Part shown: positions 4,718 to 30,208 of the stretch, in pieces
Layout: the number at the start of each line of letters is the position of its first letter
How positions within the stretch are numbered: the first letter of the stretch is position 1
DNA from: Hoeflea sp.
GTDB taxonomy: Bacteria; Pseudomonadota; Alphaproteobacteria; Rhizobiales; Rhizobiaceae
Strand: one strand, 5' to 3'
Length of the DNA stretch: 64,000 bases
NCBI RefSeq assembly: GCF_965233445.1
Contig: NZ_OZ247491.1
Made by a program: the position numbers and the translations under genes
Notes under the pieces: model-generated
Database searches by the model: none
Told to the model about the DNA's origin: nothing
What the model saw: only the letters and a program-made list of their open reading frames with translations

Positions 4718-6628
4718 ATGGAAATTCACTTTGACAGGGTGGTTGAGGCAGGACGGCAGATCGCCGGGTCCTGGCTTGAGTCCACGGATGCGGCAGGCGC
4801 CGCCCATCAGCGCCGGGTTGCCTTCATGGCATCGTGCCTGTCGGGCGCGATCCTGGCGCCGATGATCCTGTTCCCCGCCCTTGCCGCAAGCTTTGAATGG
4901 TCCCATGCGCTGGCGATCGCGTTCTGCGTTGCCGCGCTTCCCGTGGCCGTCGCCAGCATCCTGGCGGCAACCGGAAGTCTGCGTCTTGCCGCAGGCCTGG
5001 CACTCGGCGGCGCTTCGGTGACTCTACTGGCCCTGCCGGCCCTGAGCGGCGGGTTTTCATCCCCGCTGTTGCCGCTGATAGCGCTTCTGCCTCTGGAAGC
5101 TGCCGCGCTGTCCAGGTCGCGGGCAGGGCTTGCCGCCGGACTGGTCAGCGCCCTGGCCGTGTTGCTTGCGATTGCCGCGATCGATGGGTTTTCTTCCGGT
5201 CCGGCACTCTCCGGCAGCGGAGGCCTGGCGGCAGTTGCGTCATTGATGCTCTACGGGCTCTTGCGCGGCGGATTTCACGCTTTCGGCGCCGGATCGACCG
5301 GCGTTTCCGGCAACACGGAAGCCGCCGTCAGGGACATGCCGGGCGCGAACCCGACCCACCACGCCTCTGCCTTGCAGCCGAAGCCGGCTGATATGGACAG
5401 TGCCGCGATCCTCAACCGCATGCCGGGCCTGATCACCCGTCACAATGCGCAGGGCGATGTGGTCGGCATCTGGGGCGAAGACAGCGCCGATATTCTGTCG
5501 CGCATCGGGGAGATCGAGCGCAGGGGCTTCGTCAACCGCATTCACGTGGCCGACCGGATCGCCTTTCTCGATGCGTTTGATGCGCTGCGGCGTGGCGAGA
5601 CGCGCCGCCGCGAAGTCGAAATCCGGTTCGAACGGAGCGACGTTGCGGGCGTGTTTGTCCACGCCGCCGTTTCGCTGTCTGCCGAGCGCGCGCCGGACGG
5701 AACATTTGCCGGCGCACTGGTGCAGAGCAGGGACATCTCGAATCGTGTCGCCGGCCAGTTGAAGGCCGCGGCAGACGCCGAGGAGGCTGAAACCGCCAAC
5801 GCCGCCAAGACCCGCTTTCTGGCCGCCGTCAGCCACGAGCTGCGCACCCCGCTCAACGCCATCATCGGCTTTTCGGACATTCTCGCGCGCGAGTATTTCG
5901 GCGCCTTCAGCAATGACCGCCAGCGCGAATATGTCGAGCTTATCCACCAGTCCGGCGAGCACCTTCTCGCCGTGGTCAACACCATGCTCGACATGTCCAA
6001 GATCGAATCCGGACGCTACGAGGTCTTCGTCGAGTCCTTCCCGCTGTGCGAAGTTGTCGACGGCTGCGACGCCATGCTCAAGCTTCAGGCCTCAAAGCGC
6101 GGTGTCGCGCTGACCCGCAGGCTTGCACCCGGCGTGGGCGATGTCGTTGCCGACCGTCGTGCGATCCAGCAGATCCTCATCAACCTGGTCGGCAACGCGA
6201 TCAAGTTCACCGAAGAGGGCGGCGTCATCAATGTCGACGCGGAAATTCGCGGCGGCGACCTGGTGCTCAGCGTCAGCGACACCGGTGTGGGAATTCCCGC
6301 CGGGAAGCTCGCGCATATCGGCCAGCCCTTTGTGCAGGCGCAGAGCGGGCTCTCGCGCACTTACGAGGGCACGGGCCTCGGCCTGTCGCTGGTCAAGGGC
6401 CTCGTCGATCTTCACGGCGGCGACTTCGCCATCGAGAGCCGGGAAGGGCACGGCACCGTCGTGACGATCACGATCCCGGTCGATGGCTCGCGCGCCAATT
6501 CACACGTCTCCGCGGACGAGGCCGATGCCGGCGCCCCGGTGGCGTTCCCGCCGGTTCTGCCGAGGGCGGACCGGTCGCAGGACCAAAGCAGGAAAGAGAC
6601 CCATGCCAAGACAGCGCTCAGCGCCTGA
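4718..6628 (+). CDS. Membrane PAS-domain sensor histidine kinase (PleC/DivJ/PdhS-type HisKA-HATPase)
   Basis: H-box SHELRTPLNAIIGFSDIL, N-box LINLVGNAIKFT and G-boxes DTGVGI / GTGLGLS. Hydrophobic N-terminal half. Start chosen at the ATG at 4718. Confidence 0.8.
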   Translation: MEIHFDRVVEAGRQIAGSWLESTDAAGAAHQRRVAFMASCLSGAILAPMILFPALAASFEWSHALAIAFCVAALPVAVASILAATGSLRLAAGLALGGASVTLLALPALSGGFSSPLLPLIALLPLEAAALSRSRAGLAAGLVSALAVLLAIAAIDGFSSGPALSGSGGLAAVASLMLYGLLRGGFHAFGAGSTGVSGNTEAAVRDMPGANPTHHASALQPKPADMDSAAILNRMPGLITRHNAQGDVVGIWGEDSADILSRIGEIERRGFVNRIHVADRIAFLDAFDALRRGETRRREVEIRFERSDVAGVFVHAAVSLSAERAPDGTFAGALVQSRDISNRVAGQLKAAADAEEAETANAAKTRFLAAVSHELRTPLNAIIGFSDILAREYFGAFSNDRQREYVELIHQSGEHLLAVVNTMLDMSKIESGRYEVFVESFPLCEVVDGCDAMLKLQASKRGVALTRRLAPGVGDVVADRRAIQQILINLVGNAIKFTEEGGVINVDAEIRGGDLVLSVSDTGVGIPAGKLAHIGQPFVQAQSGLSRTYEGTGLGLSLVKGLVDLHGGDFAIESREGHGTVVTITIPVDGSRANSHVSADEADAGAPVAFPPVLPRADRSQDQSRKETHAKTALSA

Positions 6629-16622: not shown

Positions 16623-16682
16623 CGACACAACGAATTTTCAGACCTCCCCCATCCCCCCCGCGCGTCCCCCAACGCGTAACCT

Positions 16683-16714
16683 GCCGCCGAAGATTTTTCT
16701 TCGGCGGCTTTTTT
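16683..16714 (+). terminator. Rho-independent terminator
   Basis: GCCGCCGAAGA-TTTT-TCTTCGGCGGC followed by TTTTTT. It marks the left edge of the AT-richer island. Confidence 0.8.
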
Positions 16715-16816
16715 ATGTGGTGTGGGGATGGAGCGTGGGTAGAGCGGGTGGAATGTTCAAGGAACGCGCATTGTGGTATCTTTGACCAAAACCTGCGGAA
16801 ATCGACCGGAGCCGGC

Positions 16817-17065
16817 ATGCAACGCACATATTTCGTCAGGGCTGTGTGGGATGAAGAAGCGGAAGTGTTCGTTTCCGAAAGCGATATTATCGGCCTGCAC
16901 ATCGAAGCGGAAACCGTGGACGAATTCGAGGCCATGTTGCGAGATGTCGCGACCGATCTGGTGATCGCCAACCACATAAGCCCGGAACAACTGGAAACCA
17001 CGCCATTACGCGAGTTGATCCCGACAATCGTGTGGGAACGGCCCGGACCAGAAATGGCCGCCTGA
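16817..17065 (+). CDS. hicB: HicB-like antitoxin (DUF1902 type)
   Basis: YFVRAVWDEEAEVFVSESDIIGLHIEAETVDEFEAMLRDV is DUF1902/HicB-like. It lies immediately upstream of hicA with a 1-nt gap. Confidence 0.7.
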   Translation: MQRTYFVRAVWDEEAEVFVSESDIIGLHIEAETVDEFEAMLRDVATDLVIANHISPEQLETTPLRELIPTIVWERPGPEMAA

Positions 17066-17066
17066 A

Positions 17067-17264
17067 TTGGCGCCCGGCTTCTATCGCCAAGTTTGCGAGG
17101 AACTGACCCGGGCAGGTTTTGCGTATCTCTCCAATGCAAAGGGATCCCACGAGAAGTGGCGGAACCCCGAGACCGGTAGACTGGTACTTGTGCCGCGCAA
17201 TCTCAAAAGCCGCCACACGGCAAATGCGATCATGAAATCGGCGGGCGTGGAAAAGAAGCTCTGA
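17067..17264 (+). CDS. hicA: HicA family mRNA interferase toxin
   Basis: GFAYLSNAKGSHEKWRNPETGRLVLVPRNLKSRHTANAIMKSAGV is the HicA/YcfA signature. TTG start. Confidence 0.8.
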   Translation: MAPGFYRQVCEELTRAGFAYLSNAKGSHEKWRNPETGRLVLVPRNLKSRHTANAIMKSAGVEKKL

Positions 17265-17333
17265 TTGCTCGCCAAGTGGCCCCTCACAATTATGCCCAAA
17301 CCAGGATTCCCGCTTCAGTTGCCGAATAAGTCT

Positions 17334-17430
17334 CAAGGTTTCAGACCGTGAATACGCCGACATGCTGCTTGAAGCCATCTGTGGCAAGCGCCTGACCTAT
17401 CGGAGGATTGGTAAAGCCAATTGCGCCTAA
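17334..17430 (+). pseudogene. 3' remnant (about 32 codons) of an IS1595-family transposase gene
   Basis: It translates to ...ADMLLEAICGKRLTYRRIGKANCA*. This aligns at the nucleotide level with the 3' end of the intact copy at 24797-24896. Confidence 0.8.
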
Positions 17431-17670
17431 ACAAAAGGCGCGAAAGCTTCTCCACAAGCGCAAGAAACGCAACCTGTGATTCCCCGGGAATGCTCACGCA
17501 ACCCACTTGCATACTCCAGAACATTAGGAGAACGTGAAAGGCGACCGATTCGCACTCGGTCGCCTTCGTTCAAACAAGCCATGGGACGGCTCGCATGAAA
17601 CACAATCAGATTTTGAATCCTCCCGCGATTCTCGTCAAGCGTCCTGCGGCCAAATGCAGGAGACTTTAAG

Positions 17671-17961
17671 ATGGCCAAGCGCGCCCAAATCAAATGCATC
17701 AACAAAAACGACCGTTACAATCCATACGAACGGATCACGCACGTTGGAGGGCATGTCACTTCACAGTGGAAGATCACACTAGACGACGCAATCGCCAGGA
17801 TCGAGAACGGCGAATGGGAATTTTTTGTCGGCGGTGGTGGGCTTCTCACTCCAGAAGTGAATGTTATCGTCGCGGAGAGCCCGCATGGGAACAAGTACCT
17901 GAAGACTGAAGCGGATGATCGGGAGCCGAACAACCTTCTGAGTCTTCCCGAATGCCCATGA
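17671..17961 (+). CDS. DUF3892 domain protein
   Basis: NKNDRYNPYERITHVGG...WKITLDDAIARIENGEWEFFV...YLKTEADDREPNNLLSLPEC. AGGAG SD upstream. Confidence 0.75.
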   Translation: MAKRAQIKCINKNDRYNPYERITHVGGHVTSQWKITLDDAIARIENGEWEFFVGGGGLLTPEVNVIVAESPHGNKYLKTEADDREPNNLLSLPECP

Positions 17962-17994
17962 TCATCAAGTAGGACGCTCGAATGACTGTAGGCT

Positions 17995-18222
17995 CTAAAC
18001 CCATTCTAAAGCTTGTTGGGCGACGTACAGTTCGGCGTCGCGCCCTCGGCCGGAGACGAGCGTGGTACGAATGCGGTCAATCTCTCTTTGAATGAAACTC
18101 ATTGACTCTTCCTTCTTCGGCTTACCGTCCCTCCCGGTCTTCGGATCGGGAGGGGTTTTCAACAGGTGGCGCAAAACGTCGTCGCCCTTTTCCTGGTCTG
18201 TTTTCTTACTGGTGTCTGACAT
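17995..18222 (-). CDS. Small K/R-rich protein with LRHLLKTPPDPK motif ('TPP' family, U0 copy)
   Basis: The shared motif KGD(D/E)VLR(H/R)LLKTPPDP also occurs in the 25146-25316 copy. Related motifs are in 19764-19949 and 22629-22781. The start could be 18222 or 18279. Confidence 0.45.
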   Translation of the reverse strand: MSDTSKKTDQEKGDDVLRHLLKTPPDPKTGRDGKPKKEESMSFIQREIDRIRTTLVSGRGRDAELYVAQQALEWV

Positions 18223-18832
18223 GAGCAAAACTCTATCGGAGATTGACGGTATAAAGTTGGCATTGGGCGATATGTGCATTGCATGGGCGCACTTGGAGGA
18301 TGACTACTTCACGTTGGCGCTTTACCAATTTGAGTCATTCGACAGCGAAATCTCTCAAGCGCTTCAATCAGTATTAGACATCAGGGACATGGCGGCGCTT
18401 CAGAAAAATACTGCGCTAGCAAGGCCCAGAAACATCATCACTGATCACCTGATTTGCCTCGCTGACCAAATTGACAAAGAGCTTAGGCCTGTCAGAAACC
18501 GCTTTATCCACGACCCAATTTTTAAATTCAATGACTCCTACGAATTCGTAGACCGTACAGCCCGGATAAGAAAGCCTCAGGCGTTTAAGATCGAAATAAC
18601 TTTCCAGAATTGCTCGCCCGCGTCTAGCGAACGAATTGAAGCATTCACAAAGTGCATTCGCTGCGCACACGAATACGCGGGTGAGATTTTTGGCATTTTG
18701 GAATGCATGGATGACGCTGCAAAGTGGGGGCTGCCTCTTGGCGATCAAGAAGCGCGGGTACTCCGCGCAAACTTGGCCGAGGCCATCGCGGCGTACAAAG
18801 AAATGACCAAATCTCCAGAACCCAAAGAGTAA
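18221..18832 (+). CDS. HEPN-like protein (R-x4-H motif), U0 effector
   Basis: IAWAHLEDD helix and VRNRFIHDP (R-NRFI-H). It has the same architecture as the 25315-25932 protein. An alternative start at Met18 (18272) is possible. Confidence 0.5.
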   Translation: MSKTLSEIDGIKLALGDMCIAWAHLEDDYFTLALYQFESFDSEISQALQSVLDIRDMAALQKNTALARPRNIITDHLICLADQIDKELRPVRNRFIHDPIFKFNDSYEFVDRTARIRKPQAFKIEITFQNCSPASSERIEAFTKCIRCAHEYAGEIFGILECMDDAAKWGLPLGDQEARVLRANLAEAIAAYKEMTKSPEPKE

Positions 18833-18933
18833 TCGTCCGGCGCTACCCACCTCGACAATTCTCTCACGCCCGCCTCAATCATCTCAGGCGTAATCTCAAT
18901 CTCTTCTGTCCTTGTCTCGTCTGCGTCCGTCAT
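18745..18933 (-). CDS. Small protein with EIEITPEMIEAG motif (U0 copy)
   Basis: GGAGAG SD upstream of the ATG at 18933. The EIEITPEMIEAG motif is shared with 19047-19259 and 21295-21564. The 3' end overlaps the effector gene convergently. Confidence 0.5.
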   Translation of the reverse strand: MTDADETRTEEIEITPEMIEAGVRELSRWVAPDDYSLGSGDLVISLYAAMASAKFARSTRAS

Positions 18934-19008
18934 AGGAAACTCTCCGTTTCCTTGACGCACCTACCGGCCTTTCACGCAGGGGAATCATGCCTTTCTGATT
19001 ATGGTACG

Positions 19009-19050
19009 TAAAGTAGATAAATAGGAAAATAATCCTAATTATATACGTGA
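19009..19050. repeat. Junction palindrome P1 (degenerate copy)
   Basis: TAAAGTAGATAAATAGGA-AAATAA-TCCTAATTATATACGTGA, with 4 mismatches to the consensus palindrome. Confidence 0.85.
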
Positions 19051-19259
19051 CAAAAGTGACCGATTCGGATAAACCATCTGGCGACAGGCCGGCAAACGAG
19101 ATTGAAGTTACCCCGGAGATGATCGAGGCGGGGGCGTTGTCTATGTCTGGTTATGATCCTGATTTCGACACGCTAGAGTCGATATCCCTTGAAATCTTCC
19201 GAGCAATGATCGTTGCTAGTCCAAAGGGATTTGTGGTTGATGTTCATCTTCTAGATTGA
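19047..19259 (+). CDS. Small protein with EIEVTPEMIEAG motif (U1 copy)
   Basis: Family motif plus ...LEIFRAM. GTG start with no obvious SD, so the start is uncertain. Confidence 0.4.
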   Translation: MTKVTDSDKPSGDRPANEIEVTPEMIEAGALSMSGYDPDFDTLESISLEIFRAMIVASPKGFVVDVHLLD

Positions 19260-19707
19260 AAAGCTCCGGACGCAAGGTGCACATGATCCCAGTTCGGTAA
19301 AGCTGTGCGGTCGCAACAAAACGATCCCTCGGCGCGAGAAGGGCGCGCCCCTGAAATCTAGGTTCTTGATGTCTATCAAGGAGGGTCAAGTGTTTGCATG
19401 TGTCGGCCACTTCGTTGGTGGCAAAGCTTATTGGTTTTCGCGAATGCGCGAATGTATTTCGGATGTGACGTATCAAGCTCAAGTCGTGCCTAGCCTGCTT
19501 ACCTATGAGGCCTAATGCATAGGCTAAATTGATCTTCGCGGAAAAGGTAGAAATAGGGCTATCTCCTATGAATATTTCACCTATTTCGGATTGAGTCAGC
19601 GGGACCATTTTTGACAAAATGAACTCTTTTAGATCATCTTCCAGGTGGGTCGATACGATGATTGCGGCGGCACGATCATCTGAGCGATCCAAATGCGACG
19701 GCTGCAT
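19216..19707 (-). CDS. HEPN-like protein (MtlR/DUF4145-like, IRNTFAH motif), U1 effector
   Basis: STHLEDDLKEFI..., STFSAKINLAYALGLIGKQARHDLSLIRHIRNTFAHS (R-x4-H). The ORF is open up to a GTG at 19848, so the start is uncertain. Confidence 0.5.
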   Translation of the reverse strand: MQPSHLDRSDDRAAAIIVSTHLEDDLKEFILSKMVPLTQSEIGEIFIGDSPISTFSAKINLAYALGLIGKQARHDLSLIRHIRNTFAHSRKPISFATNEVADTCKHLTLLDRHQEPRFQGRALLAPRDRFVATAQLYRTGIMCTLRPELFNLEDEHQPQIPLD

Positions 19708-19763
19708 AAGAGCATCAGCTACACTAGGCCGCTCTCGGCTAAGCCGCTTTAAGTTGGAGAGAT

Positions 19764-19949
19764 ATGTTGGATCACGAGACAAAGACGGCCCCCAATGAAA
19801 CGGAAAAGCGCCGCGATGACGCCTTGCGCCGCGCACTATCGACGCCACCGAAACCTAAACGGGAATCAAGCAAGGCGAAAGACGAGTCCAGTGACACCAA
19901 AAGAGCTAAACGACAGGATAAGGGCGTTCACCCATCGCGCGGGAACTGA
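19764..19949 (+). CDS. Small K/R-rich protein with ALRRALSTPPKPK motif ('TPP' family, U1 copy)
   Basis: Motif family member, divergent from the U1 effector. Confidence 0.4.
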   Translation: MLDHETKTAPNETEKRRDDALRRALSTPPKPKRESSKAKDESSDTKRAKRQDKGVHPSRGN

Positions 19950-20158
19950 GATTTCTCAAGAAGCCGGATCATGGCTTCGAGGGACTGACCATAATCACCC
20001 TGACGTTCTTCGTCAGACAGATCAGCGGCAACGTCCAACAGGTAGTCAATCAACTTCTCACGATTGATGACGCCCTGGTCAATTAGGGCCGCAATAACGG
20101 CCATGTTTGCGAAAAGCAGGCCGTATACTGGGCCCATATCTCTAAGGGGTTCCCTCAT
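19928..20158 (-). CDS. Hypothetical 76-aa protein (variable slot of U1)
   Basis: AAGGAAG SD 7 nt upstream of the ATG at 20158. No recognisable domain. Confidence 0.45.
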   Translation of the reverse strand: MREPLRDMGPVYGLLFANMAVIAALIDQGVINREKLIDYLLDVAADLSDEERQGDYGQSLEAMIRLLEKSQFPRDG

Positions 20159-20205
20159 CGCGACTCTTCCTTTTTCGAATCGCTAGGAGCTTACGCGCTT
20201 TCTGC

Positions 20206-21195
20206 TTAGGCGTAACTGGCTTGACCAGTTTGATTATAGGTCAACCGCTTGCCAGATGCGCCACGGATCGCATCTTCGGCCCGTTCACGGTCTGAAATTT
20301 TGAGCGCGGTACGGCGGTTATAGCGGAAATCGAATTCTGCCAGATAGCGGTGCAGGTGAGCCTCGCCGCAATGCTGATAGATACCGATCATGCCGCGCTT
20401 GAAGATGGAGAACACGTTCTCAATCGTGTTTGAGTGCACAACGGCATCGCCCTCACGGCGGGCATATTCCTTCGCGGAATGCCTGACAGTGCGGTGTGTA
20501 GCGTATTCCTCACCGGTCGCTGTGTAGAGGCGTGACTCGTCGGTGTAGAGGTTGGACTTGCGGTCAACGTTGCGGACCAGAACATCGCGGAGAATGTCCT
20601 TGGTGGCGTTCTGCACGAGGAACATGCGGGACTTGCCGCCACGCTCGACCAGACCGACAACGATACGCTTGTCCGCACCACCCGCCTTGCCCGACTTCGT
20701 AGGCTTGGCAATGCGGCCACGGGAAAGCTGACGAGGAGTTTCACGCTTACCGATGTAGGTTTCATCGGCTTCAACGGTCTTGCCTTCACCGCCAAGAGGA
20801 CCAGACGAGGCAACGTCCTCTTTCATGGCTTCGCGGATACGGTGAGCCATGAACCAAGCAGTCTTGTAGGTGACGCCAAGCATACGGTGTAGCTGGTGAG
20901 CGGACATGCCCTTCTTGGATGCTGCGAACAGGTGAAAAGCGAATACCCACTTCGACAGCGGAACCTTTGACCGCTCCATGACGGACCCCACGGTGACGGT
21001 GAACTGACCGCCACACTCATTGCAGTAGTAGAGGCCCTTACGGTGCGTCTGCTTCTTGCCTTCGACTTTCGCAATCTTGGACGCGTCAATGTTGCCGCAA
21101 TGCGGGCAGTTCGGGCCGTGGGGCCAACGAATAGCCTCAAGGTGCTCACGGGCTGCGTCTTCGTCGTGAAAGATAGGATCGTTGAAAGCGGTCAT
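20206..21195 (-). CDS. IS1595-family (ISXO2-like) DDE transposase with N-terminal zinc ribbon
   Basis: CPHCGN...YYCNECGGQF zinc ribbon. DDE-type residues lie in VEADETYIG, LYTDESRLY and HSNTIENVFS. AAGGAG SD upstream of the ATG at 21195. Confidence 0.85.
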   Translation of the reverse strand: MTAFNDPIFHDEDAAREHLEAIRWPHGPNCPHCGNIDASKIAKVEGKKQTHRKGLYYCNECGGQFTVTVGSVMERSKVPLSKWVFAFHLFAASKKGMSAHQLHRMLGVTYKTAWFMAHRIREAMKEDVASSGPLGGEGKTVEADETYIGKRETPRQLSRGRIAKPTKSGKAGGADKRIVVGLVERGGKSRMFLVQNATKDILRDVLVRNVDRKSNLYTDESRLYTATGEEYATHRTVRHSAKEYARREGDAVVHSNTIENVFSIFKRGMIGIYQHCGEAHLHRYLAEFDFRYNRRTALKISDRERAEDAIRGASGKRLTYNQTGQASYA

Positions 21196-21239
21196 TGGTT
21201 TAACTCCTTGACCTCTTTTCGCAAATGGCCCTACTTTTG

Positions 21240-21281
21240 TCAAGTATATAATTAGGAAAATAATCCTAATTATATACTTGA
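21240..21281. repeat. Junction palindrome P2 (perfect 42 bp)
   Basis: TCAAGTATATAATTAGGA-AAATAA-TCCTAATTATATACTTGA. Confidence 0.95.
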
Positions 21282-21294
21282 GAAAGCAAAAATC

Positions 21295-21564
21295 GTGACG
21301 TATGATTCGGGCCGACAGGCCGGCACGGAAAAGACCGAGGAAATTGAGATTACGCCGGAGATGATTCAGGCGGGGCTTTCGGCGTGGTCGGAGTGCGAAG
21401 CTATGCGCGTTGAACGGAGCGCCACTTTGAAGCTGATCTTTTGTAGGATGTGGCTTTTAATGGAGAGGAGCCCCGTTCTTTCTGATGACGAACCAGAAGG
21501 CTTTGAGGAATATGAGGCTAAAATCATTGCGGCTTGGAAAGCCGATGGCTACATCAAGGTCTGA
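21295..21564 (+). CDS. Small protein with EIEITPEMIQAG motif (U2 copy)
   Basis: Family motif. GTG start. The 3' end overlaps the 358-aa gene by 11 nt, convergently. Confidence 0.4.
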   Translation: MTYDSGRQAGTEKTEEIEITPEMIQAGLSAWSECEAMRVERSATLKLIFCRMWLLMERSPVLSDDEPEGFEEYEAKIIAAWKADGYIKV

Positions 21565-22630
21565 ATGTTTTTTCAAAGTCTGCGATAATTGCTGCGCTCA
21601 TACGGAGTAGCTGAGTGAGGGTTTTTACCACGTCGGAGCCGCCAAATGGGCGAAATCCGGTAGGGAATTTCGCTGCCGTTCCACCGGCTAATCGGCTCAA
21701 TTTATGCATCGGCTCCGAGCCTTTCCGGGCATAAAGTCTTGTACCCTCTTGAATAGGTATTATGACTTGAGGACCTAAGTATCCAATGCTTGGGGTGGGA
21801 GTGGATTGATCCAATTCTAGATAAGATTCAATAGATTTTACGACATCCAACTCATGATGGGAAACTACATAAGTAGGCAGGATGATTTTATGTTTGTCCG
21901 TAATATCAAGATCATGAAGGCCTCTAAGCTCCAAATTTCCATCGACCGAAACAGGGCGTAATTCCCTGATTTTTTGTACCATTTTTTTATTTAGTTTTTT
22001 GCAGTGGTCGTCAGCGAGAATCTTTTCCAGATGAGACATATCTTTCGCAAACGGCATTTTTAACTGTTTTGAGCTTTGGTTAGAAAGCCGCGCCAAATCT
22101 CCTATCAATATATCTAATGAGCTACGCAGATTGTGAGCTATGTCGCCGATTATTAAAGGGATCAACCCTGGTGCGGGCCCTCGAAAAGTTGCCCGCCACT
22201 CTATGGTATTGTCATCATAAGGGCCCACTTCAACTGGAATTATGGTGAGCCGTTCCCCGTATCGCCAGATCTCCTCAACAAGTTGCTCCAACAAGAGGTG
22301 AGCCCTCATAAGCTTCATATTCGGACCGACAAACGGCTTTACATTGCCACTGGAGTCAGTCTCAGGCGTCGGCATCCAAGAATGAATGAACATTTCCGGC
22401 GGGTTGCCCAATTCAGCAAACCGTGCCCTTCTAGACAGCTCTGATATTTCCCAAGATGCAAACGATAGCTGGTCGCTATCAAATTCAAAATATGACATCG
22501 TCTTGGTCTTAGATAGAAGTCCGAAGTAAACTTTGAGACCTTCTTCAGTATGGGCTACACAGTACCGGTGAAACTTTTCGACCGGTATCGCTTTTGAGAA
22601 TTCATCTAGTGGGTTAGATTCTGATTCCAT
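21554..22630 (-). CDS. Hypothetical 358-aa protein, U2 effector slot (no confident domain)
   Basis: Long ORF in the most AT-rich stretch of the window. Motifs IGDIAHNLRSSLDIL and LHDLDITDKHKII were noted but not assigned to a family. Confidence 0.6.
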   Translation of the reverse strand: MESESNPLDEFSKAIPVEKFHRYCVAHTEEGLKVYFGLLSKTKTMSYFEFDSDQLSFASWEISELSRRARFAELGNPPEMFIHSWMPTPETDSSGNVKPFVGPNMKLMRAHLLLEQLVEEIWRYGERLTIIPVEVGPYDDNTIEWRATFRGPAPGLIPLIIGDIAHNLRSSLDILIGDLARLSNQSSKQLKMPFAKDMSHLEKILADDHCKKLNKKMVQKIRELRPVSVDGNLELRGLHDLDITDKHKIILPTYVVSHHELDVVKSIESYLELDQSTPTPSIGYLGPQVIIPIQEGTRLYARKGSEPMHKLSRLAGGTAAKFPTGFRPFGGSDVVKTLTQLLRMSAAIIADFEKTFRP

Positions 22631-22781
22631 GCACAACACCGACGATCAAAAGTTCAATGAAACCCTCAAGCGGATGCTAAAGACGCCGCCGAAGCCGCAC
22701 GATAGCGACAACGGGAAGTCGAGTCACACGGAAAAAGCGAAGCCAACTAAAGCTTCGCCTTCCGTTTCCTCAAAGCGATGA
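22629..22781 (+). CDS. Small K/R-rich protein with LKRMLKTPPKPH motif ('TPP' family, U2 copy), 50 aa
   Basis: Hand translation gives MHNTDDQKFNETLKRMLKTPPKPHDSDNGKSSHTEKAKPTKASPSVSSKR. Its ATG shares CATG with the 358-aa gene start. Confidence 0.4.
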   Translation: MHNTDDQKFNETLKRMLKTPPKPHDSDNGKSSHTEKAKPTKASPSVSSKR

Positions 22782-22798
22782 CTCGTCTGATTTTTTGC

Positions 22799-23779
22799 TT
22801 AGGCGTAATTGGCTTCACCAATCCGCCGATAAGTCAGACGTTTGCCGTTGATGCGTGAAAGCAAATCGTCGTGTCGTTCGGTATCTGAGACCTTGAGCGC
22901 GGTACGACGGTTATAACGGAAATCGAACTCTGCCAGATAGCGGTGCAAGTGGGCTTCGCCGCAGTGCTGGTAAACGCCAACCATGCCGCGCTTGAAGATG
23001 GAGAACACGTTCTCAATTGTGTTTGAGTGCACGACTGCATCGCCCTCACGGCGGGCATATTCCTTCGCGGAATGCCTGATAGTGCGGTGAGTAGCGTATT
23101 CCTCACCGGTCGTGGTGTAGAGGCGCGACTCGTCGGTGTAGAGGTTGGACTTGCGGTCAACGTTGCGGACCAGAACATCGCGGAGAATGTCCTTGGTGGC
23201 GTTCTGCACGAGGAACATGCGGGACTTGCCGCCACGCTCCACAAGGCCCACGACGATACGCTTATCAGCACCACCGGCCTTGCCCGACTTGGTAGGCTTG
23301 GCAATGCGGCCACGGGAAAGTTGGCGAGGGGTTTCGCGCTTACCGATGTAGGTTTCATCGGCTTCAACGGTTTTGCCTTCGCCACCAAGAGGACCAGACG
23401 AGGCAACGTCCTCTTTCATTGCTTCGCGGATACGGTGAGCCATAAACCAAGCGGTCTTGTAGGTGACGCCAAGCATACGGTGCAGCTGGTGAGCGGACAT
23501 GCCCTTCTTGGATGAAGTCATCAAGAAAGTGGCGAGAAGCCATTTATTCAGCGCGATCTTAGAGCGTTCAAACACGGTGCCGACGGTAACGGAGAACTGC
23601 TTACGGCATTCCATGCAGTTGTAGAGGCCGGGGCGGTGAGCCTTGCCCTTCATCTCTGTGATGCGGGTCTGGTCGCAGTTGCCGCAATGAGGGCAAACAG
23701 GACCATTCGGCCACTGCATAGCCTCAAGATGTTCGCGGGCTGCGTCTTTGTCGGTGAAGATTTTGTCGTCAAGTTTCAT
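22799..23779 (-). CDS. IS1595-family (ISXO2-like) DDE transposase with N-terminal zinc ribbon
   Basis: Same domain motifs as 20206-21195. The central segment of about 125 aa is identical at the protein level. SD ACGGAG upstream. Confidence 0.85.
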   Translation of the reverse strand: MKLDDKIFTDKDAAREHLEAMQWPNGPVCPHCGNCDQTRITEMKGKAHRPGLYNCMECRKQFSVTVGTVFERSKIALNKWLLATFLMTSSKKGMSAHQLHRMLGVTYKTAWFMAHRIREAMKEDVASSGPLGGEGKTVEADETYIGKRETPRQLSRGRIAKPTKSGKAGGADKRIVVGLVERGGKSRMFLVQNATKDILRDVLVRNVDRKSNLYTDESRLYTTTGEEYATHRTIRHSAKEYARREGDAVVHSNTIENVFSIFKRGMVGVYQHCGEAHLHRYLAEFDFRYNRRTALKVSDTERHDDLLSRINGKRLTYRRIGEANYA

Positions 23780-23825
23780 AGGCTTCGCTCCGTTGTCCTT
23801 TTATAGGAAATCGGATCGTGCTTTG

Positions 23826-23867
23826 TCAAGTATATAATTAGGAAAATAATCCTAATTATATACTTGA
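23826..23867. repeat. Junction palindrome P3 (perfect 42 bp, 44 bp with the flanking G/C)
   Basis: Same sequence as P2. It lies between two divergent transposase genes. Confidence 0.95.
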
Positions 23868-23912
23868 CGTACCAGATCGGATTTGGCATAAAGGACTCAA
23901 GGAGTTAAGCCA

Positions 23913-24896
23913 ATGTTCGACCTGACCAACGAGATTTACCACGACGCCGACAAGGCCCGCGAGCATCTGGAAGCTATCCAGTGGCCGCACGGTCCTATCT
24001 GCCCGCATTGTGGCAACTGCGATCAGACGCGCATTACCAAGCTTGAAGGCGCTTCAACCCGTCCCGGCGTGTACAAGTGCAATGAATGCCGCAAGCCCTT
24101 CTCGGTCACTGTCGGCACTGTGTTTGAGCGCTCCAAGATCGGCCTGCACAAATGGGTTCTGGCAACGCACCTTCTGGCTTCATCCAAGAAGGGCATGTCC
24201 GCACACCAGCTGCACCGTATGCTTGGCGTCACCTACAAGACCGCTTGGTTTATGGCTCACCGTATCCGCGAAGCCATGAAAGAGGACGTTGCCTCGTCTG
24301 GTCCTCTTGGCGGCGAAGGCAAAACCGTTGAAGCCGACGAAACCTACATCGGAAAGCGCGAAACCCCTCGTCAGCTTTCCCGTGGCCGCATTGCCAAGCC
24401 TACGAAGTCGGGCAAGGCGGGCGGTGCGGACAAGCGTATCGTTGTCGGTCTGGTCGAGCGTGGCGGCAAGTCCCGCATGTTCCTCGTGCAGAACGCCACC
24501 AAGGACATTCTCCGCGATGTTCTGGTCCGCAACGCTGACCGCAATTCCAACCTCTACACCGACGAGTCGCGCCTCTACACCTCAGTTGGTGAGGAATACG
24601 CTACGCACCGCACTGTGAAGCATTCCCGCAAGGAATATGCCCGCCGTGAGGGCGATGCCGTGATTCACTCCAATACGATTGAAGGCGTCTTCTCAATCTT
24701 CAAGCGTGGCATGATCGGTATCTATCAGCATTGCGGCGAAGCTCACCTTCACCGCTACCTTGCTGAATTTGATTTCCGCTATAACCGCCGCTCGGCTCTC
24801 AAGGTTTCCGACCGTGAGCGCGCCGACATGCTGCTTGAAGCCATTCGCGGCAAGCGCCTGACCTATCGGCGGATTGGTGAAGCCAGTTACGCCTAA
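23913..24896 (+). CDS. IS1595-family (ISXO2-like) DDE transposase with N-terminal zinc ribbon
   Basis: CPHCGN...YKCNECRKPF, then VEADETYIG, LYTDESRLY and HSNTIEGVFS. AAGGAG SD upstream. Confidence 0.85.
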   Translation: MFDLTNEIYHDADKAREHLEAIQWPHGPICPHCGNCDQTRITKLEGASTRPGVYKCNECRKPFSVTVGTVFERSKIGLHKWVLATHLLASSKKGMSAHQLHRMLGVTYKTAWFMAHRIREAMKEDVASSGPLGGEGKTVEADETYIGKRETPRQLSRGRIAKPTKSGKAGGADKRIVVGLVERGGKSRMFLVQNATKDILRDVLVRNADRNSNLYTDESRLYTSVGEEYATHRTVKHSRKEYARREGDAVIHSNTIEGVFSIFKRGMIGIYQHCGEAHLHRYLAEFDFRYNRRSALKVSDRERADMLLEAIRGKRLTYRRIGEASYA

Positions 24897-25028
24897 GCAG
24901 AAGGCGCGAGCTATTCTCAGAAAACGCAAAAAGCGCTAGCTTATTTGCGGTTGTTGATTCGCCTCAGCCACACCTCTCAGGGTTATGCCTTAAGCCGGGC
25001 CACTGCCCGAGAAAGGAGGTGAGAGCGA

Positions 25029-25139
25029 ATGTCCAAGGCAACCAAAATCGGTCGAAGCGCGGTTACGGGGCGCTTTACAACGGTGAAAACCGCAGTGAAG
25101 CATCCCCGTACCCACATCGTGGAGACCCGTAAAAAGTAA
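25029..25139 (+). CDS. 36-aa protein MSKATKIGRSAVTGRFTTVKTAVKHPRTHIVETRKK (variable slot of U3)
   Basis: Very strong SD GAAAGGAGG 8 nt upstream. The S-A-x-TGRF...HP-x-T pattern resembles a widespread small-protein family (from memory). It is below the ORF-track cut-off. Confidence 0.5.
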   Translation: MSKATKIGRSAVTGRFTTVKTAVKHPRTHIVETRKK

Positions 25140-25145
25140 GCCAGC

Positions 25146-25316
25146 CTAGCTGTCTTCTTCCGGGCGGTGTTTCTGTGCAGGAGTGCCGCCCGGTTTCGTT
25201 TTCTGACCTGAATCGCTTGTGCGAGACTTGTGCCCCGGATCAGGCGGGGTTTTCAACAGGCGGCGCAATACCTCGTCGCCCTTTTCCTGGTCTTTGCTCA
25301 TGGATGATTCTGACAT
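25146..25316 (-). CDS. Small K/R-rich protein with VLRRLLKTPPDPG motif ('TPP' family, U3 copy), 56 aa
   Basis: Hand translation gives MSESSMSKDQEKGDEVLRRLLKTPPDPGHKSRTSDSGQKTKPGGTPAQKHRPEEDS. An in-frame TGA two codons upstream fixes the ORF's 5' limit. Confidence 0.45.
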   Translation of the reverse strand: MSESSMSKDQEKGDEVLRRLLKTPPDPGHKSRTSDSGQKTKPGGTPAQKHRPEEDS

Positions 25317-25932
25317 GCCTCAGCCCTTGTCTAAAGTCTGTCCCAATTGCTCGTACAGCATCGGCGCGACTGGTGCACCCGCGTTGCCCAGCCGCCCAGA
25401 ATTGGCAGCCCTTGCAATGGAGTCGATAGCCTCATGGTCGCACGTCGAAGCTGAATTGCTTAGAGTTTATATCCAGCTAATGGGAGGGAAAGATGACCGA
25501 GCGACCGTCGCTTACCTATCCCTTGAAACCCAAGGCGCAAAAACAAACGTCATATCTGCTGTTGCCAAATCCTTCTTGGGGAAAGACGAACTCTCGGTTC
25601 TTAACGCAATTCTGCGATTAGCAAAGACGAACCAAAAGCATAGGGACAAATTAGCGCATTGGATTTGGGGAATATGCCCGGATCTGCCAGACGCCATCCT
25701 TTTGGCAAACCCGAAAAACATGAAATCCGGTTACCCCGACCCCTCAGAGGTGTTCGTTTACAAAGCGAAAGATTTCACCCAAATCATTGAAGCAAACAAA
25801 CGGCTTGCCTCACTAGCAGGGGGACTCATACTCGCGCTTTTTCCCCCTTCTGATTGGCCACACAAGCTCTCACCACTTGAGTTGCTATGTAAGGCACCTG
25901 AGCTTCGAGAAATCCTAAGTCATCAGGCTTAG
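25315..25932 (+). CDS. HEPN-like protein (R-x4-H motif), U3 effector
   Basis: IASWSHVEAE helix and HRDKLAHWIWG (R-DKLA-H). An alternative start at Met35 (25417) is possible. Confidence 0.5.
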   Translation: MPQPLSKVCPNCSYSIGATGAPALPSRPELAALAMESIASWSHVEAELLRVYIQLMGGKDDRATVAYLSLETQGAKTNVISAVAKSFLGKDELSVLNAILRLAKTNQKHRDKLAHWIWGICPDLPDAILLANPKNMKSGYPDPSEVFVYKAKDFTQIIEANKRLASLAGGLILALFPPSDWPHKLSPLELLCKAPELREILSHQA

Positions 25933-26014
25933 CAAATTCGATCTCTCGACGGAGAATCGACTCAACGGCCTTAACCAGACCGCCAAACCCGTCTTTCTCG
26001 TCTGTCGTCGTCAT
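25826..26014 (-). CDS. Small protein in the EIEIT-gene position of U3 (motif not conserved)
   Basis: The 5' UTR, SD and first codons are nearly identical to the 18745-18933 copy. The body has diverged. The 3' end overlaps the effector gene by 107 nt. Confidence 0.35.
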   Translation of the reverse strand: MTTTDEKDGFGGLVKAVESILRREIEFAKPDDLGFLEAQVPYIATQVVRACVANQKGEKARV

Positions 26015-26089
26015 AGGAAACTCTCCGTTTCCTTGACGCACCTACCGGCCTGTCACGCCGCCGAATCATGCCTTTTCGATTCTGGTACG

Positions 26090-26120
26090 TCAAGTATATA
26101 ATTAGGAAAATAATCCTTGA
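26090..26120. repeat. Junction palindrome P4 (left arm + spacer + truncated right arm), right edge of the island
   Basis: TCAAGTATATAATTAGGA-AAATAA-TCC then TTGACGG. The right arm looks like the consensus with 11 internal nt missing. Confidence 0.85.
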
Positions 26121-27218: not shown

Positions 27219-27553
27219 CGGAGGCAGGATGGCCGTGAGCTCACCACGGACCCGTGCGGTGACGCGGCGGGCAGGGTGCTTTCGGCACGGCTGGGTTTCT
27301 TGAACGGATAGCGAAAGGGTGCGGCATGAGCCTGCGGTCGATGACGATGGCGCTCAGGGGCACTGTCTGGGCAGACCCTGTGCCCGGGTTCTGCGTTCCG
27401 GTCCGAAACCTGCTGGCGTGCGGGCAGGTTCTTGCGCCAAGGATTGCGGAGCATGTGCCTGTCGGCGCCACGGAAAGAGGCAGCGGGGATACGGCATCGC
27501 TGTCCTGCCCGAATGCAATGAAAAACAAGGGCTTCGGCAGCTGTCATGATTCA

Positions 27554-28870
27554 ATGTCGCAGTCCGGCGGGCCGGGCGCTGCGGCAGGCGTGCCGGATCT
27601 GCTTGCCCACCATGTCGGGCGGTTCGACGACCGGGCGCTTTTTGCCAGTGCCCATGACTGGCAGCTCCTGGCGCGGCCCGAGCAATTGCCGCCCGAAGGC
27701 GACTGGCGCACCTGGCTGCTGATGGGCGGGCGCGGCTCCGGCAAGACCCGGGCCGGAGCCGAGTGGGTGCATGCGATTGCCACCGGCGATCTGCCGGGGC
27801 TCGGTCCGGACGGGCGCATCGCGCTGGTGGCCGAAACCTTCGGCGATGCGCGCGAGGTGATGATCGACAATGTGTCGGGCATTCTCGGCGTGGCGCGCAC
27901 CGAACGGCCCGCCTTCGAGGCGACGCGGCGCAGGCTGGTCTGGCCCTCGGGCGCGGTGGCGCAGATGTTCTCCTCGGAAGATCCCGAGAGCCTGCGCGGG
28001 CCGCAATTCTCGCTCGCCTGGTGCGACGAGCTGGGCAAGTGGCGCCATGCCCGCGAGACCTGGGACATGCTGCAATTCGGCCTGAGGCTCGGCTCGTCGC
28101 CGCGCCAGATGGTGACGACCACCCCGCGGGCGACGCCGCTGATGCTGTCGCTGGTGAAGGACGCCACCACGCGGATGACGCGGATCAGGACCGCCGACAA
28201 TGCGGCGAACCTGGCGGGCGGCTTCATCGAGACGGTTCGCGCACGCTATGGCGGCACGCGGCTCGGACGGCAGGAGCTCGACGGCGAACTGATTGCCGAC
28301 CGCGAGGACGGGCTGTGGCGGCGCGACCAGATCGAGGCGCTGACGGTGCGGGGTCACGGCCCGCTGTCGCGCATCGTGGTGGCGGTCGACCCGCCGGCCT
28401 CGGGGGAGGCGAAGCACTCCTGCTGCGGCATCGTGGCGGTCGGGCTTGACGGCGATGGCCGCGCGGTGGTGCTGGCGGACGGGTCGGTGGAGGGCGCGAG
28501 CCCCTCGGGATGGGCGGAAGCCACGGCACGGCTCTACCGGCGCTTCGACGCCGATTGCGTGGTGGCCGAGATCAACCAGGGCGGCGACATGGTGACGAGC
28601 GTGCTCAGGACGGTGGAGCCGACGCTGCCGGTCAGGACCGTGCGCGCGACGCGTGGCAAGTGGCTGCGCGCCGAGCCGGTGGCCGCGCTCTACGAGCAGG
28701 GCCGGGTGGTCCATGCCGGGCACTTCGCGGCGCTGGAGGACCAGATGTGCGATTTCGGGCCGGACGGTCTCAGTTCCGGGCGGTCTCCGGACCGGCTCGA
28801 CGCGCTGGTCTGGGCGCTGACCGAATTGCTGCTGGCACGCAGGAGCGAGCCGCAGGTGCGGCATTTGTGA
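27554..28870 (+). CDS. GTA/phage terminase large subunit
   Basis: Walker A LLMGGRGSGKTRAGAEW. Size and position match RcGTA g2. Start chosen at the ATG at 27554. Confidence 0.85.
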   Translation: MSQSGGPGAAAGVPDLLAHHVGRFDDRALFASAHDWQLLARPEQLPPEGDWRTWLLMGGRGSGKTRAGAEWVHAIATGDLPGLGPDGRIALVAETFGDAREVMIDNVSGILGVARTERPAFEATRRRLVWPSGAVAQMFSSEDPESLRGPQFSLAWCDELGKWRHARETWDMLQFGLRLGSSPRQMVTTTPRATPLMLSLVKDATTRMTRIRTADNAANLAGGFIETVRARYGGTRLGRQELDGELIADREDGLWRRDQIEALTVRGHGPLSRIVVAVDPPASGEAKHSCCGIVAVGLDGDGRAVVLADGSVEGASPSGWAEATARLYRRFDADCVVAEINQGGDMVTSVLRTVEPTLPVRTVRATRGKWLRAEPVAALYEQGRVVHAGHFAALEDQMCDFGPDGLSSGRSPDRLDALVWALTELLLARRSEPQVRHL

Positions 28871-28956
28871 ACGCGACCCAAGGGGGGCGTCATGCCGGAC
28901 TTGAGAGAGACAAGCGAAGCGACGTCGTAGCTCCGGCGTGACGGAGAGGATTTTCA

Positions 28957-28986
28957 CCCCGCCGGGTCGCCTCGGCGGGGTTTTTG
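28957..28986 (+). terminator. Hairpin + T-tract between terminase and portal genes
   Basis: CCCCGCCG-GGTCGCCT-CGGCGGGG followed by TTTTTG. Confidence 0.45.
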
Positions 28987-29014
28987 ATTCCGGACCTTTG
29001 AAGGGATGTGAGAC

Positions 29015-30208
29015 ATGGCATTCGGATTGAAGCTTCCCTGGAGCAGAGCGGATCGGACCCGTGCCACGGTTCCCGTGCCTCCGGCCACCAAGAGCTGGCT
29101 GCCGGGCGCGCTGGCGGCCCTTTCGGGCGGGGAGGGTGCGCAATGGAGCGGCCGCTCCTATGCCGCGATGGCGCGCGAGGGCTTCATGAAGAACCCGGTC
29201 GCCCACCGCGCAATCCGCATGATCGCCGAGGCCGCGGCGTCCGTCCCCTGGGTTGTGTTCGACGGCGCCCGCGAGCAGGACCGGCATCCGGTGCTGGATC
29301 TTCTGAACCGGCCCGATCCGGCGGGCGCGGGCAACGTGTTCTTCGAAGCGCTTTACGGGCATCTCACGCTTTCGGGCAATGCCTGGATCAATCCTGTCGG
29401 CACCGGCGGGCGTCTGGCCGGGCTGCAACTGCTGAGGCCCGACCGGATGCGGGTGATCGAGGGACCCGACGGCTGGCCGGTCGCCTATGAGCACCAGTCG
29501 GGCGCGCGGCGGCAGAGGTTCGCGGCCCAGCCCGTGGAGGGGCCGGGGCTGCTGCACCTCAAGCTGTTTCATCCGCTCGACGATCATCTCGGTTTCGCAC
29601 CGCTCGAGGCGGCGCTGATGGCACTCGACCTGCACAATGCGGCGATGGGCTGGAACAAGGCGCTGCTCGACAATTCCGCCCGGCCCTCCGGCGCGCTGGT
29701 CTACCAGCCGAAGGAGGGCGGCAACCTGACGCCGGAACAGTACCAGCGGCTGAAAGCCGAACTGGAGGACGGCTACCAGGGGGCGCGCCGCGCCGGCCGC
29801 CCGATGCTGCTCGAGGGCGGGCTCGACTGGAAGGCCATGGGGCTGACGCCGCGCGACATGGATTTCGTCGAGGCCAGGAACGGGGCCGCCCGCGACATCG
29901 CGCTCGCTCTGGGGGTGCCGCCGATGCTCCTGGGCATCCCCGGCGACCTGACCTATGCCAATTACCAGGAGGCGAACCGCGCCTTCTGCCGGCTCACCGT
30001 GCTGCCGCTGGTGGCGCGCACGGCGCAGGCGCTGACCGCCTGGCTGCAGCCGGTCTACGGCGCGGGACTGAAAGTCGACTATGACGCCGACCGGCTGCCG
30101 GGACTTTCCTCCGAGCGCGATGCGCTGTGGGCGCGGCTCGGCGAAGCCGATTTCCTGAGCGATGAAGAGAAGCGGGAAGCTGTTGGATATCAAAGTGTTG
30201 CGGGATGA
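29015..30208 (+). CDS. Phage portal protein, HK97 family (RcGTA g3-like)
   Basis: 397 aa, with motifs such as NPVAHRAIRMIAEAAASVPW and GVPPMLLGIPGD. Confidence 0.85.
   Translation: MAFGLKLPWSRADRTRATVPVPPATKSWLPGALAALSGGEGAQWSGRSYAAMAREGFMKNPVAHRAIRMIAEAAASVPWVVFDGAREQDRHPVLDLLNRPDPAGAGNVFFEALYGHLTLSGNAWINPVGTGGRLAGLQLLRPDRMRVIEGPDGWPVAYEHQSGARRQRFAAQPVEGPGLLHLKLFHPLDDHLGFAPLEAALMALDLHNAAMGWNKALLDNSARPSGALVYQPKEGGNLTPEQYQRLKAELEDGYQGARRAGRPMLLEGGLDWKAMGLTPRDMDFVEARNGAARDIALALGVPPMLLGIPGDLTYANYQEANRAFCRLTVLPLVARTAQALTAWLQPVYGAGLKVDYDADRLPGLSSERDALWARLGEADFLSDEEKREAVGYQSVAG

Follow-up and report, generated by a model that had tools for sequence, protein, structure and literature searches.

A 64,000-nucleotide stretch of the genome of Hoeflea sp. 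(contig NZ_OZ247491.1; here called the window, meaning the whole stretch that was analysed) carries an array of four insertion sequences (ISs) of the IS1595 family, representatives of a group of ISs of 2-3.8 kb, widespread in Alphaproteobacteria, that bear one exchangeable putative conflict gene in a defined slot. In three of the four units the slot is filled by a small stand-alone protein with an R-x4-H motif. One of these, cargo B, is almost certainly a member of the HEPN superfamily and the other two, cargos A and C, probably are; profile comparisons make A and C distant relatives within one previously unnamed superfamily, which this IS clade carries more often than any other cargo. The fourth unit carries cargo D, a protein of what the profiles indicate to be a separate family, unrelated to A, B and C. 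Our overall explanation, that these IS1595 units transport HEPN-type conflict genes restrained by the surrounding frame, is one that we hold to be slightly better than an even bet. The names cargo A to D, like those of the KTPP and EIEIT genes used below, are labels coined for this analysis.

An earlier note on this DNA had described a variable slot with three distinct, strongly diverged HEPN-like proteins and one unrelated protein of 358 residues that it could not assign. All four open reading frames (ORFs) are present as described, namely cargo A (203 residues; 18221-18832, plus strand), cargo B (163 residues; 19216-19707, minus strand), cargo D (358 residues; 21554-22630, minus strand) and cargo C (205 residues; 25315-25932, plus strand), and so are the paired motifs, IAWAHLEDD and VRNRFIH in A (R92-N-R-F-I-H97, preceded by W22 and E26), IVSTHLEDD and IRNTFAH in B (R83-N-T-F-A-H88) and IASWSHVEAE and HRDKLAH in C (R110-D-K-L-A-H115, preceded by W41 and E45). 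All three therefore show the HEPN motif R-x4-6-H with a polar residue after the arginine; in known HEPN proteins the motif is placed at the end of helix 3, usually with N, D or H following the arginine (PMC3710099). Among 159 stop-to-stop ORFs of at least 150 residues, taken from the six frames of the whole window, R[NDH]xxxH alone is common (28 ORFs), and its combination with H[LV]E 50-90 residues upstream occurs in A, B and C only. Pairwise BLASTP among A, B and C found no significant similarity, in agreement with the strong divergence reported before. RefSeq labels these cargos 'hypothetical protein'.

The assignment of cargo B is the firmest. It matches the Pfam MtlR model (E=7.7e-8, 32.9 bits) above the curated cut-off of 25.2 bits, falls narrowly short of the cut-off for DUF4145 (E=2.6e-4) and has a sequence match to the solved MtlR structure 6kcr (E=5e-4), which bears out the MtlR/DUF4145 resemblance noticed in the earlier note. 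MtlR, DUF4145 and Abi_2 are all counted as HEPN families (PMC3710099). Phages of Mesorhizobium, Agrobacterium, Klebsiella and Burkholderia encode relatives of cargo B that retain RNxFAH and match MtlR (best E=6.5e-9), DUF4145 (E=7.4e-5, at the cut-off) and Abi_2 (E=0.0085). Cargo B scores 32.7 bits with the NCBIfam MltR model, against a cut-off of 149 bits, and the genes around it belong to the transposon and not to mannitol utilisation; judged by these scores it is MtlR-like in predicted fold and family, not an MtlR orthologue. A metagenome scan for close relatives of cargo B gave no confirmed match.

Cargo A has only three close relatives and cargo C has 35, and hhalign of the small alignments (4 sequences for A, 26 for C) returned a probability of 1.3%. 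The link between them appeared only after the A family was expanded by an exhaustive profile search of representative clusters (50% identity, E <= 0.001), which found 251 such clusters. Compared with the C family, this expanded profile reaches 74% (E=2.7e-5) in an alignment of 168 columns that keeps both motifs in register. Furthermore, jackhmmer started from A gains all 35 C-family proteins (the window's cargo C at 1.3e-14) and 0 of the 14 D-family proteins, and several cargos of sister elements (described below) match both the A and the C profile. Among 146 of these A-superfamily representatives, of at most 50% mutual identity, R92, N93 and H97 never vary and W22 and E26 hardly do; the same holds, in 26 aligned C-type proteins, for R110 and H115 on the one hand and W41 and E45 on the other. 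The signature of the superfamily is an invariant R-[N/D]-x3-H with a near-invariant W-x3-E. Hence the earlier description of three distinct effectors holds at the level of pairwise similarity and has to be amended in that A and C share one superfamily.

Several lines of evidence connect this superfamily to HEPN proteins. The B family aligns with the A/C superfamily at 86.9% (E=4.2e-6) over 80 columns, again with both motifs in register, and a control comparison of B with D gave 0.1%. Just two Pfam families, HEPN_RiboL-PSP (6 members) and HEPN_Cthe2314 (5 members), are matched by at least three of the 146 A-type proteins, and each of these matches stays under the cut-off. For C, the AlphaFold model (predicted local distance difference test, pLDDT, 93.5; predicted template modelling score, pTM, 0.88) has, by its secondary-structure string, long helices at residues 28-55, 73-87, 90-115 and 151-175, and R110 and H115 lie at the end of the third of these, followed by a beta insert and the last helix, a position that agrees with the one given for HEPN proteins. 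Beta inserts after the motif have been described in Csx1 (PMC3710099). The HEPN assignment of the earlier note is thus upheld for B, which passes a Pfam cut-off, and becomes probable for A and C through motif, helix position, sub-threshold Pfam matches and the 87% profile link, with Foldseek lending it no support in either PDB or BFVD. From the sequences we infer that A, B and C would act as stand-alone, metal-independent endoribonucleases of HEPN type that use the R-x4-H dyad.

Cargo D, which the earlier note had called AT-rich, lies where the window is richest in AT (GC 0.47-0.49) and has no R-x4-H motif. Its family of 14 relatives shares the invariant motifs GDxxHNLRSxLD and GNxxLxxLHxLDxxDKH. 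The earlier failure to assign it was repeated with databases: no match to cargo D was found in Pfam, NCBIfam, PADLOC, PHROGs or PDB sequences, and a Pfam scan of 10 D-type proteins returned nothing. A kinship with the HEPN cargos was considered and is unsupported, with hhalign at 0.1-0.2% against both the A/C and the B profiles, which together with the jackhmmer result confirms that D stands apart from the other three. In its model, which is of medium confidence (pLDDT 75), the invariant histidine ends a long helix and a beta insert comes after it; Foldseek of this model against PDB gave nothing significant, the weak matches being to RnlA and dsRBD (E ~0.1-0.3). Judging from the model, it is conceivable, though improbable, that D is a fourth, strongly derived HEPN-like nuclease.

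How the slot is filled elsewhere was surveyed with the unit d transposase as query and one genome per species. At least 579 related loci were found, of which the best 80 (52-94% identity, nearly all alphaproteobacterial) were analysed as sister loci, and 56 of these have definable pairs of terminal inverted repeats (IRs), 2.0-3.8 kb apart, and are treated as complete elements. A/C-superfamily cargos are present in 32 of the 56, D-family cargos in five, a B-like cargo in one and a cargo recognisable by its motif only in one, and the remaining 17 have another cargo or none. The other occupants include SocA_Panacea antitoxin genes accompanied by a partner gene, an AAA_15/AAA_21 ABC ATPase, Beta_protein and Peptidase_M78; these families are typical of toxin-antitoxin (TA) and defence systems. 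Genes for A/C-type proteins always share the strand of the transposase and a fixed junction, the C-type genes being directly downstream of the IS1595 transposase in all contexts examined and the A-type genes likewise in Mesorhizobium. Counted over all 80 sister loci, D-type cargo occurs in eight; it is also present on a Mesorhizobium plasmid beside a DUF3892 gene, and D-type genes occur outside ISs too. In the window the transposases are 84-87% identical at the DNA level and yet accompany cargos of different families, so cargo exchange must be fast relative to the divergence of the frame. The idea of a conserved transposon frame around a variable slot, put forward in the earlier note, is hence borne out, the frame being an IS1595 element.

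The array spans 17305-26117, with one of its units (unit a) truncated at the 5' end, and lies in an island (17000-26100) with a GC content of ~0.47-0.57, compared with ~0.61-0.71 in the flanks. The three intact transposases, in unit b (20206-21243, minus strand), unit c (22799-23779, minus strand) and unit d (23913-24896, plus strand), all have the IS1595 catalytic domain (Pfam DDE_Tnp_IS1595, E from 2.5e-36, in unit b, to 4.6e-35) and the N-terminal zinc ribbon (Zn_ribbon_IS1595, E from 9.4e-13, again in unit b, to 7.5e-11), and that of unit d also matches NCBIfam transpos_IS1595 (E=2.6e-57). Terminal IRs and an 8-bp target duplication likewise place the units in this family. The 18-nt terminal repeat CCTAATTATATACTTGAC is found in seven copies in the window, compared with 0.01 expected by chance. 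Units abut through palindromic junctions of the form IR-AAAATAAT-IR, and all four junctions carry the identical 8 bp. At junction a/b (19008-19051) a degenerate IR (19008-19025) is followed by the 8 bp (19026-19033) and an IR (19034-19051); junction b/c (21239-21282) has the 8 bp at 21257-21264; junction c/d (23825-23868) has them at 23843-23850 between perfect palindrome arms; and at the right outer end of the array (26089-26117) an IR (26089-26106) is followed by the same AAAATAAT (26107-26114) and by CCT of the chromosomal target. Many sister elements have identical 8-bp flanks as well, among them L020, L021, L036, L040, L045, L054, L062, L068, L070 and L085. The region consists of four transporter ISs inserted successively into one 8-bp target.

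Each unit is laid out as IR, transposase, KTPP gene (opposite strand), cargo (transposase strand), a small antisense gene typified by EIEITPEMIEAG (the EIEIT gene) and IR, and the cargos follow each other in the order A, B, D, C in units a, b, c and d. The KTPP protein has an acidic N-terminus, the motif LRRMLKTPPxPK and a Lys-rich tail; it has no family assignment and is found in at least 28 sister loci. In the window its gene is present in unit a (17995-18222, minus strand; DDVLRHLLKTPPDPK and the Lys-rich tail), unit b (19764-19949, plus strand; DDALRRALSTPPKPK), unit c (22629-22781, plus strand) and unit d (25146-25316, minus strand). Its ATG overlaps the ATG of the cargo within the tetranucleotide CATG in unit a (18220-18223, cargo A), unit c (22628-22631, cargo D) and unit d (25314-25317, cargo C), unit b being the sole unit of the window without this overlap. 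Among the KTPP-bearing elements listed, ~26 of 35 show it, independently of the cargo family, with A-, C- and D-type as well as other cargos. The CATG overlap fixes the boundary between frame and cargo to the nucleotide and makes the 5' ends of both genes mutually antisense, and genes that diverge from overlapping ATGs have no room between them for a promoter region.

At the other end of the slot, the EIEIT gene starts just inside the right IR, is convergent with the cargo and overlaps its 3' end. In unit a (18745-18960, minus strand) it carries EIEITPEMIEAG and reads inward from the right IR across the 3' end of cargo A; units b (19047-19259, plus strand; EIEVTPEMIEAG) and c (21295-21564, plus strand; EIEITPEMIQAG) each have a copy of the small gene; and in unit d the inward-reading gene (25826-26041, minus strand), whose 3' end overlaps cargo C, is without the EIEITPEMIEAG motif but has the N-terminus MRQGNGEFPMT in common with the copy of unit a. 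Variability, expressed as entropy, is highest at the third codon position in both small genes (14.4/9.4/25.2 for KTPP and 16.0/14.1/26.6 for EIEIT at positions one to three), which indicates that they are truly coding; the possibility that the KTPP ORF is an artefact of a conserved RNA element is ruled out by the same pattern. The IR holds an inward-facing promoter-like site, TTGAC(G)-17-CATGAT, upstream of the EIEIT gene. For cargos A and C, conserved terminator-like hairpins (18165-18186 and 25259-25280, plus strand) were seen ~35 nt upstream of the start, within the antisense KTPP coding sequence, and a strong 15-bp hairpin with a T-tract (25160-25193, plus strand) stands between cargo C and the transposase of unit d; with such hairpins ahead of them, the cargos may not simply be co-transcribed with the transposase.

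In the explanation that we favour, the cargos would be conflict genes, and the HEPN proteins among them growth-arresting or abortive-infection (Abi) ribonucleases (RNases) that benefit the element, in that the host is protected from phage or in that loss or silencing of the element is penalised. They would be restrained independently of their identity, by antisense or convergent transcription, and in the most speculative step antisense transcription would run from the promoter-like site in the right IR via the small genes across the cargo. The toxin or Abi role of A, B and C is suggested by their sequences, and the occurrence of cargo B relatives in phages counts for a conflict gene. An addiction or defence role would be supported indirectly, by analogy with the sister elements that hold Panacea-type TA pairs and ABC-ATPase genes in the same slot.

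Several observations weigh against this explanation. The link from A to the HEPN superfamily is transitive and every step of it is modest. Neither A nor C has a direct match among the Pfam, NCBIfam or PADLOC models; profile searches with the A and C alignments against PDB sequences gave no meaningful match and PHROGs yielded no informative match to A, C or D. The C model, searched with Foldseek, had a best E of 0.34 against PDB, with generic helical bundles, and of 0.03 against BFVD, with an unnamed protein, although Foldseek is weak on helical bundles and this result is a lack of support, not a refutation. Part of the MtlR family is probably non-catalytic (PMC3710099), and one phage homologue of cargo B is annotated as a transcriptional regulator. 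On the side of control, no MNT or other recognisable antitoxin was found beside the cargos with Pfam, NCBIfam or PADLOC, and promoter-like sites are not more numerous than expected (10 compared with 6.7 ± 2.6 after shuffling).

The closest competitor differs from our explanation only in the beneficiary and in the trigger of the toxin. It holds that the cargo toxins are neutralised by a small protein or antisense RNA of the same unit, so that a cell or replicon losing or inactivating the unit would die and the IS would be stabilised, and we regard this strict form of addiction as unlikely. There are precedents for it, since TA pairs are integral to Tn3-family transposons and have been proposed to stabilise them (PMC7157771), Panacea antitoxin pairs are slot occupants in sister elements, every cargo is overlapped at both ends by small antisense genes, and a HicA/HicB-like pair, named by eye, stands at the left edge of the island. 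However, the small genes are kept across unrelated cargo families and so cannot be specific protein antitoxins, the Pfam scan revealed neither MNT nor another known HEPN antitoxin, and chromosomal IS copies are rarely lost, which leaves post-segregational killing little benefit. A type II HEPN-MNT pair is not apparent either, as neither a nucleotidyltransferase nor any other Pfam, NCBIfam or PADLOC domain was found in the neighbouring ORFs, and PADLOC-DB 2.0, searched with A, B, C, D and the small ORFs, gave no match up to an E of 1. Cargo-independent small genes and the lack of a known antitoxin together speak against a classical protein antitoxin; the sequences are compatible with a single-gene Abi-like effector or with control at the RNA level.

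Less likely still is that the R-x4-H proteins are non-catalytic or regulatory RNA-binding proteins, akin to MtlR, that serve the element itself, for example in transposase expression or transposition, and would count as accessory parts of the IS instead of cargo. Such a role would fit the best match of cargo B, a mannitol repressor family with probably non-catalytic members (PMC3710099), as well as the prevalence of A/C-type cargos (32 of 56 complete elements), their constant strand and their fixed junction. Against it, the arginine and the histidine are invariant across very diverse members, which argues for catalysis; unrelated families (D, Panacea pairs, an ABC ATPase) replace the cargo, as would not happen to an essential transposition factor; and near-identical transposases bear different cargos. 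The least likely alternative, that A and C are helical non-HEPN proteins with a fortuitous or convergent R-x4-H and only B is a HEPN relative, can draw on the Foldseek results, the absence of a significant Pfam match, the 1.3% of the small profiles and the frequency of R[NDH]xxxH alone, but the deeper profiles (A-C 74%, B-A/C 87%, motifs in register, D controls ~0%), the union of A and C by jackhmmer, the position of the motif where helix 3 ends and the recurrence of Pfam matches to HEPN families alone argue the other way.

Compared with known HEPN proteins, the HEPN-type cargos resemble the DUF4145/MtlR branch and Abi proteins (Abi_2/AbiD/AbiF, AbiV, AbiJ, AbiU2) in having R-[N/D]-x3-H, placed by the model of C at the end of the third long helix, and a conserved acidic residue in an N-terminal helix, in being small and stand-alone without a fused partner, and in having relatives in phages and mobile DNA, with the B group matching the MtlR, DUF4145 and Abi_2 models. 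They differ in that A and C match no existing HEPN model significantly and that, in C, the motif is immediately followed by a beta insert. The acidic residue of A and C lies in the first long helix, as W-x3-E, whereas E-x3-[KR] in helix 2 is given for HEPN proteins (PMC3710099). None of these cargos is found in a mannitol operon or beside restriction-modification genes, and there is no match in PADLOC.

Transposons carrying toxin or defence genes are known and are mostly large, as in the Tn3 and Tn7 families, or belong to integrons. Members of IS1595 with passenger genes are reportedly called 'transporter IS' in ISfinder and by Siguier et al. in 2009, and the present units share with these the zinc-ribbon IS1595 DDE transposase, short IRs, an AT-rich 8-bp duplication and ORFs between the transposase and the right end; the two small antisense genes, the CATG overlap, the AGG-W8-CCT target and the arrays appear to be previously undescribed. 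With the TA pairs of Tn3-family transposons the units have in common that toxin-type genes are repeatedly acquired beside a transposition module, but the carrier here is an IS of 2-3.8 kb with a single DDE transposase and no resolvase. TnSod9 has one HEPN-MNT pair (PMC7157771), in contrast to the HEPN gene described here, which comes without an MNT partner and whose slot meets a conserved small antisense gene at a fixed junction. HEPN proteins encoded in integron cassettes are known as well (PDB 3jrt family; PMC3710099); they, too, are stand-alone HEPN genes serving as exchangeable cassettes of a mobile platform, but the platform here is a transposon instead of an integrase with attC sites, and no sequence match to them was detected. 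Literature searches on IS1595 passenger genes, ISNwi1 and HEPN found no paper describing this arrangement. What is new is probably, on sequence grounds, that an IS clade has as its default cargo a HEPN-like superfamily that domain databases do not name; also new are a slot set with nucleotide precision by start codons overlapping with a conserved antisense gene, and the formation of arrays by regeneration of the target at a conserved hotspot.

The last of these can be read from the target sites. In the sister elements, the duplicated 8 bp are 92% A/T and are directly flanked by the trinucleotides AGG on the left (27 of 34 cases) and CCT on the right (29 of 35), which defines the target as AGG-W8-CCT. 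Because the IR tips read CCT... and ...AGG, every insertion recreates two target-like sites, and arrays with identical spacers result; such arrays are present in five other loci. In the window the site (~16630-26117) lies between a penicillin-binding-protein gene and terminase and portal genes resembling those of gene transfer agents (GTAs), and IS1595 arrays occupy the same chromosomal site in Hoeflea MAG_60 (L008) and Mesorhizobium sp. YIM 152430 (L014). The same site and the same 8-bp spacer with different units point to a conserved insertion hotspot whose content turns over. The large terminase and portal-like genes (GTA or phage; 27326-30208), read by eye from the translations, begin ~1.2 kb to the right of the array.

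Taken together, the units suggest that very small transposons can spread conflict genes, and target-regenerating insertion provides a concrete mechanism for a build-up resembling a defence island at one chromosomal site. Should the cargos indeed be RNase toxins or Abi effectors, they would form a new HEPN branch and minimal ISs would be shown to spread such genes, and a unit of ~2.3 kb would offer a simple system for asking why a transposon carries a toxin and how this is tolerated without a dedicated antitoxin. A more far-reaching and rather improbable version is that the clade acts as a generic 'toxin socket', into which any toxin or defence gene could be plugged and carried safely under built-in, cargo-independent antisense control, so that self-stacking arrays would make up a fast-evolving defence island by the GTA cluster.

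Some features concern single units. Of the unit a transposase only a 3' remnant is left (17305-17430, plus strand; 78% identical to 24771-24941), and the left part of the unit including its IR is missing; a HicB-like and HicA-like pair (16800-17264), recognised by eye in the translations, stands exactly where these were lost. Unit a also has an extra passenger, a DUF3892 protein (17671-17961, plus strand; Pfam E=2.7e-21), which recurs in the Mesorhizobium plasmid element with D-type cargo (L093, 4277-4558) and is found in L040 as well (5215-5511). The C-terminal two-thirds of the three transposases (20272-21043, 22865-23766 and 24059-24826) are almost identical in protein sequence, and such near-identity beside differing N-terminal parts and cargos suggests gene conversion between members of the array. 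Unit b alone has an additional ORF of 76 residues (19928-20158, minus strand) between the KTPP gene and the transposase, with a weak match to phrog_17241 (E=0.0026).

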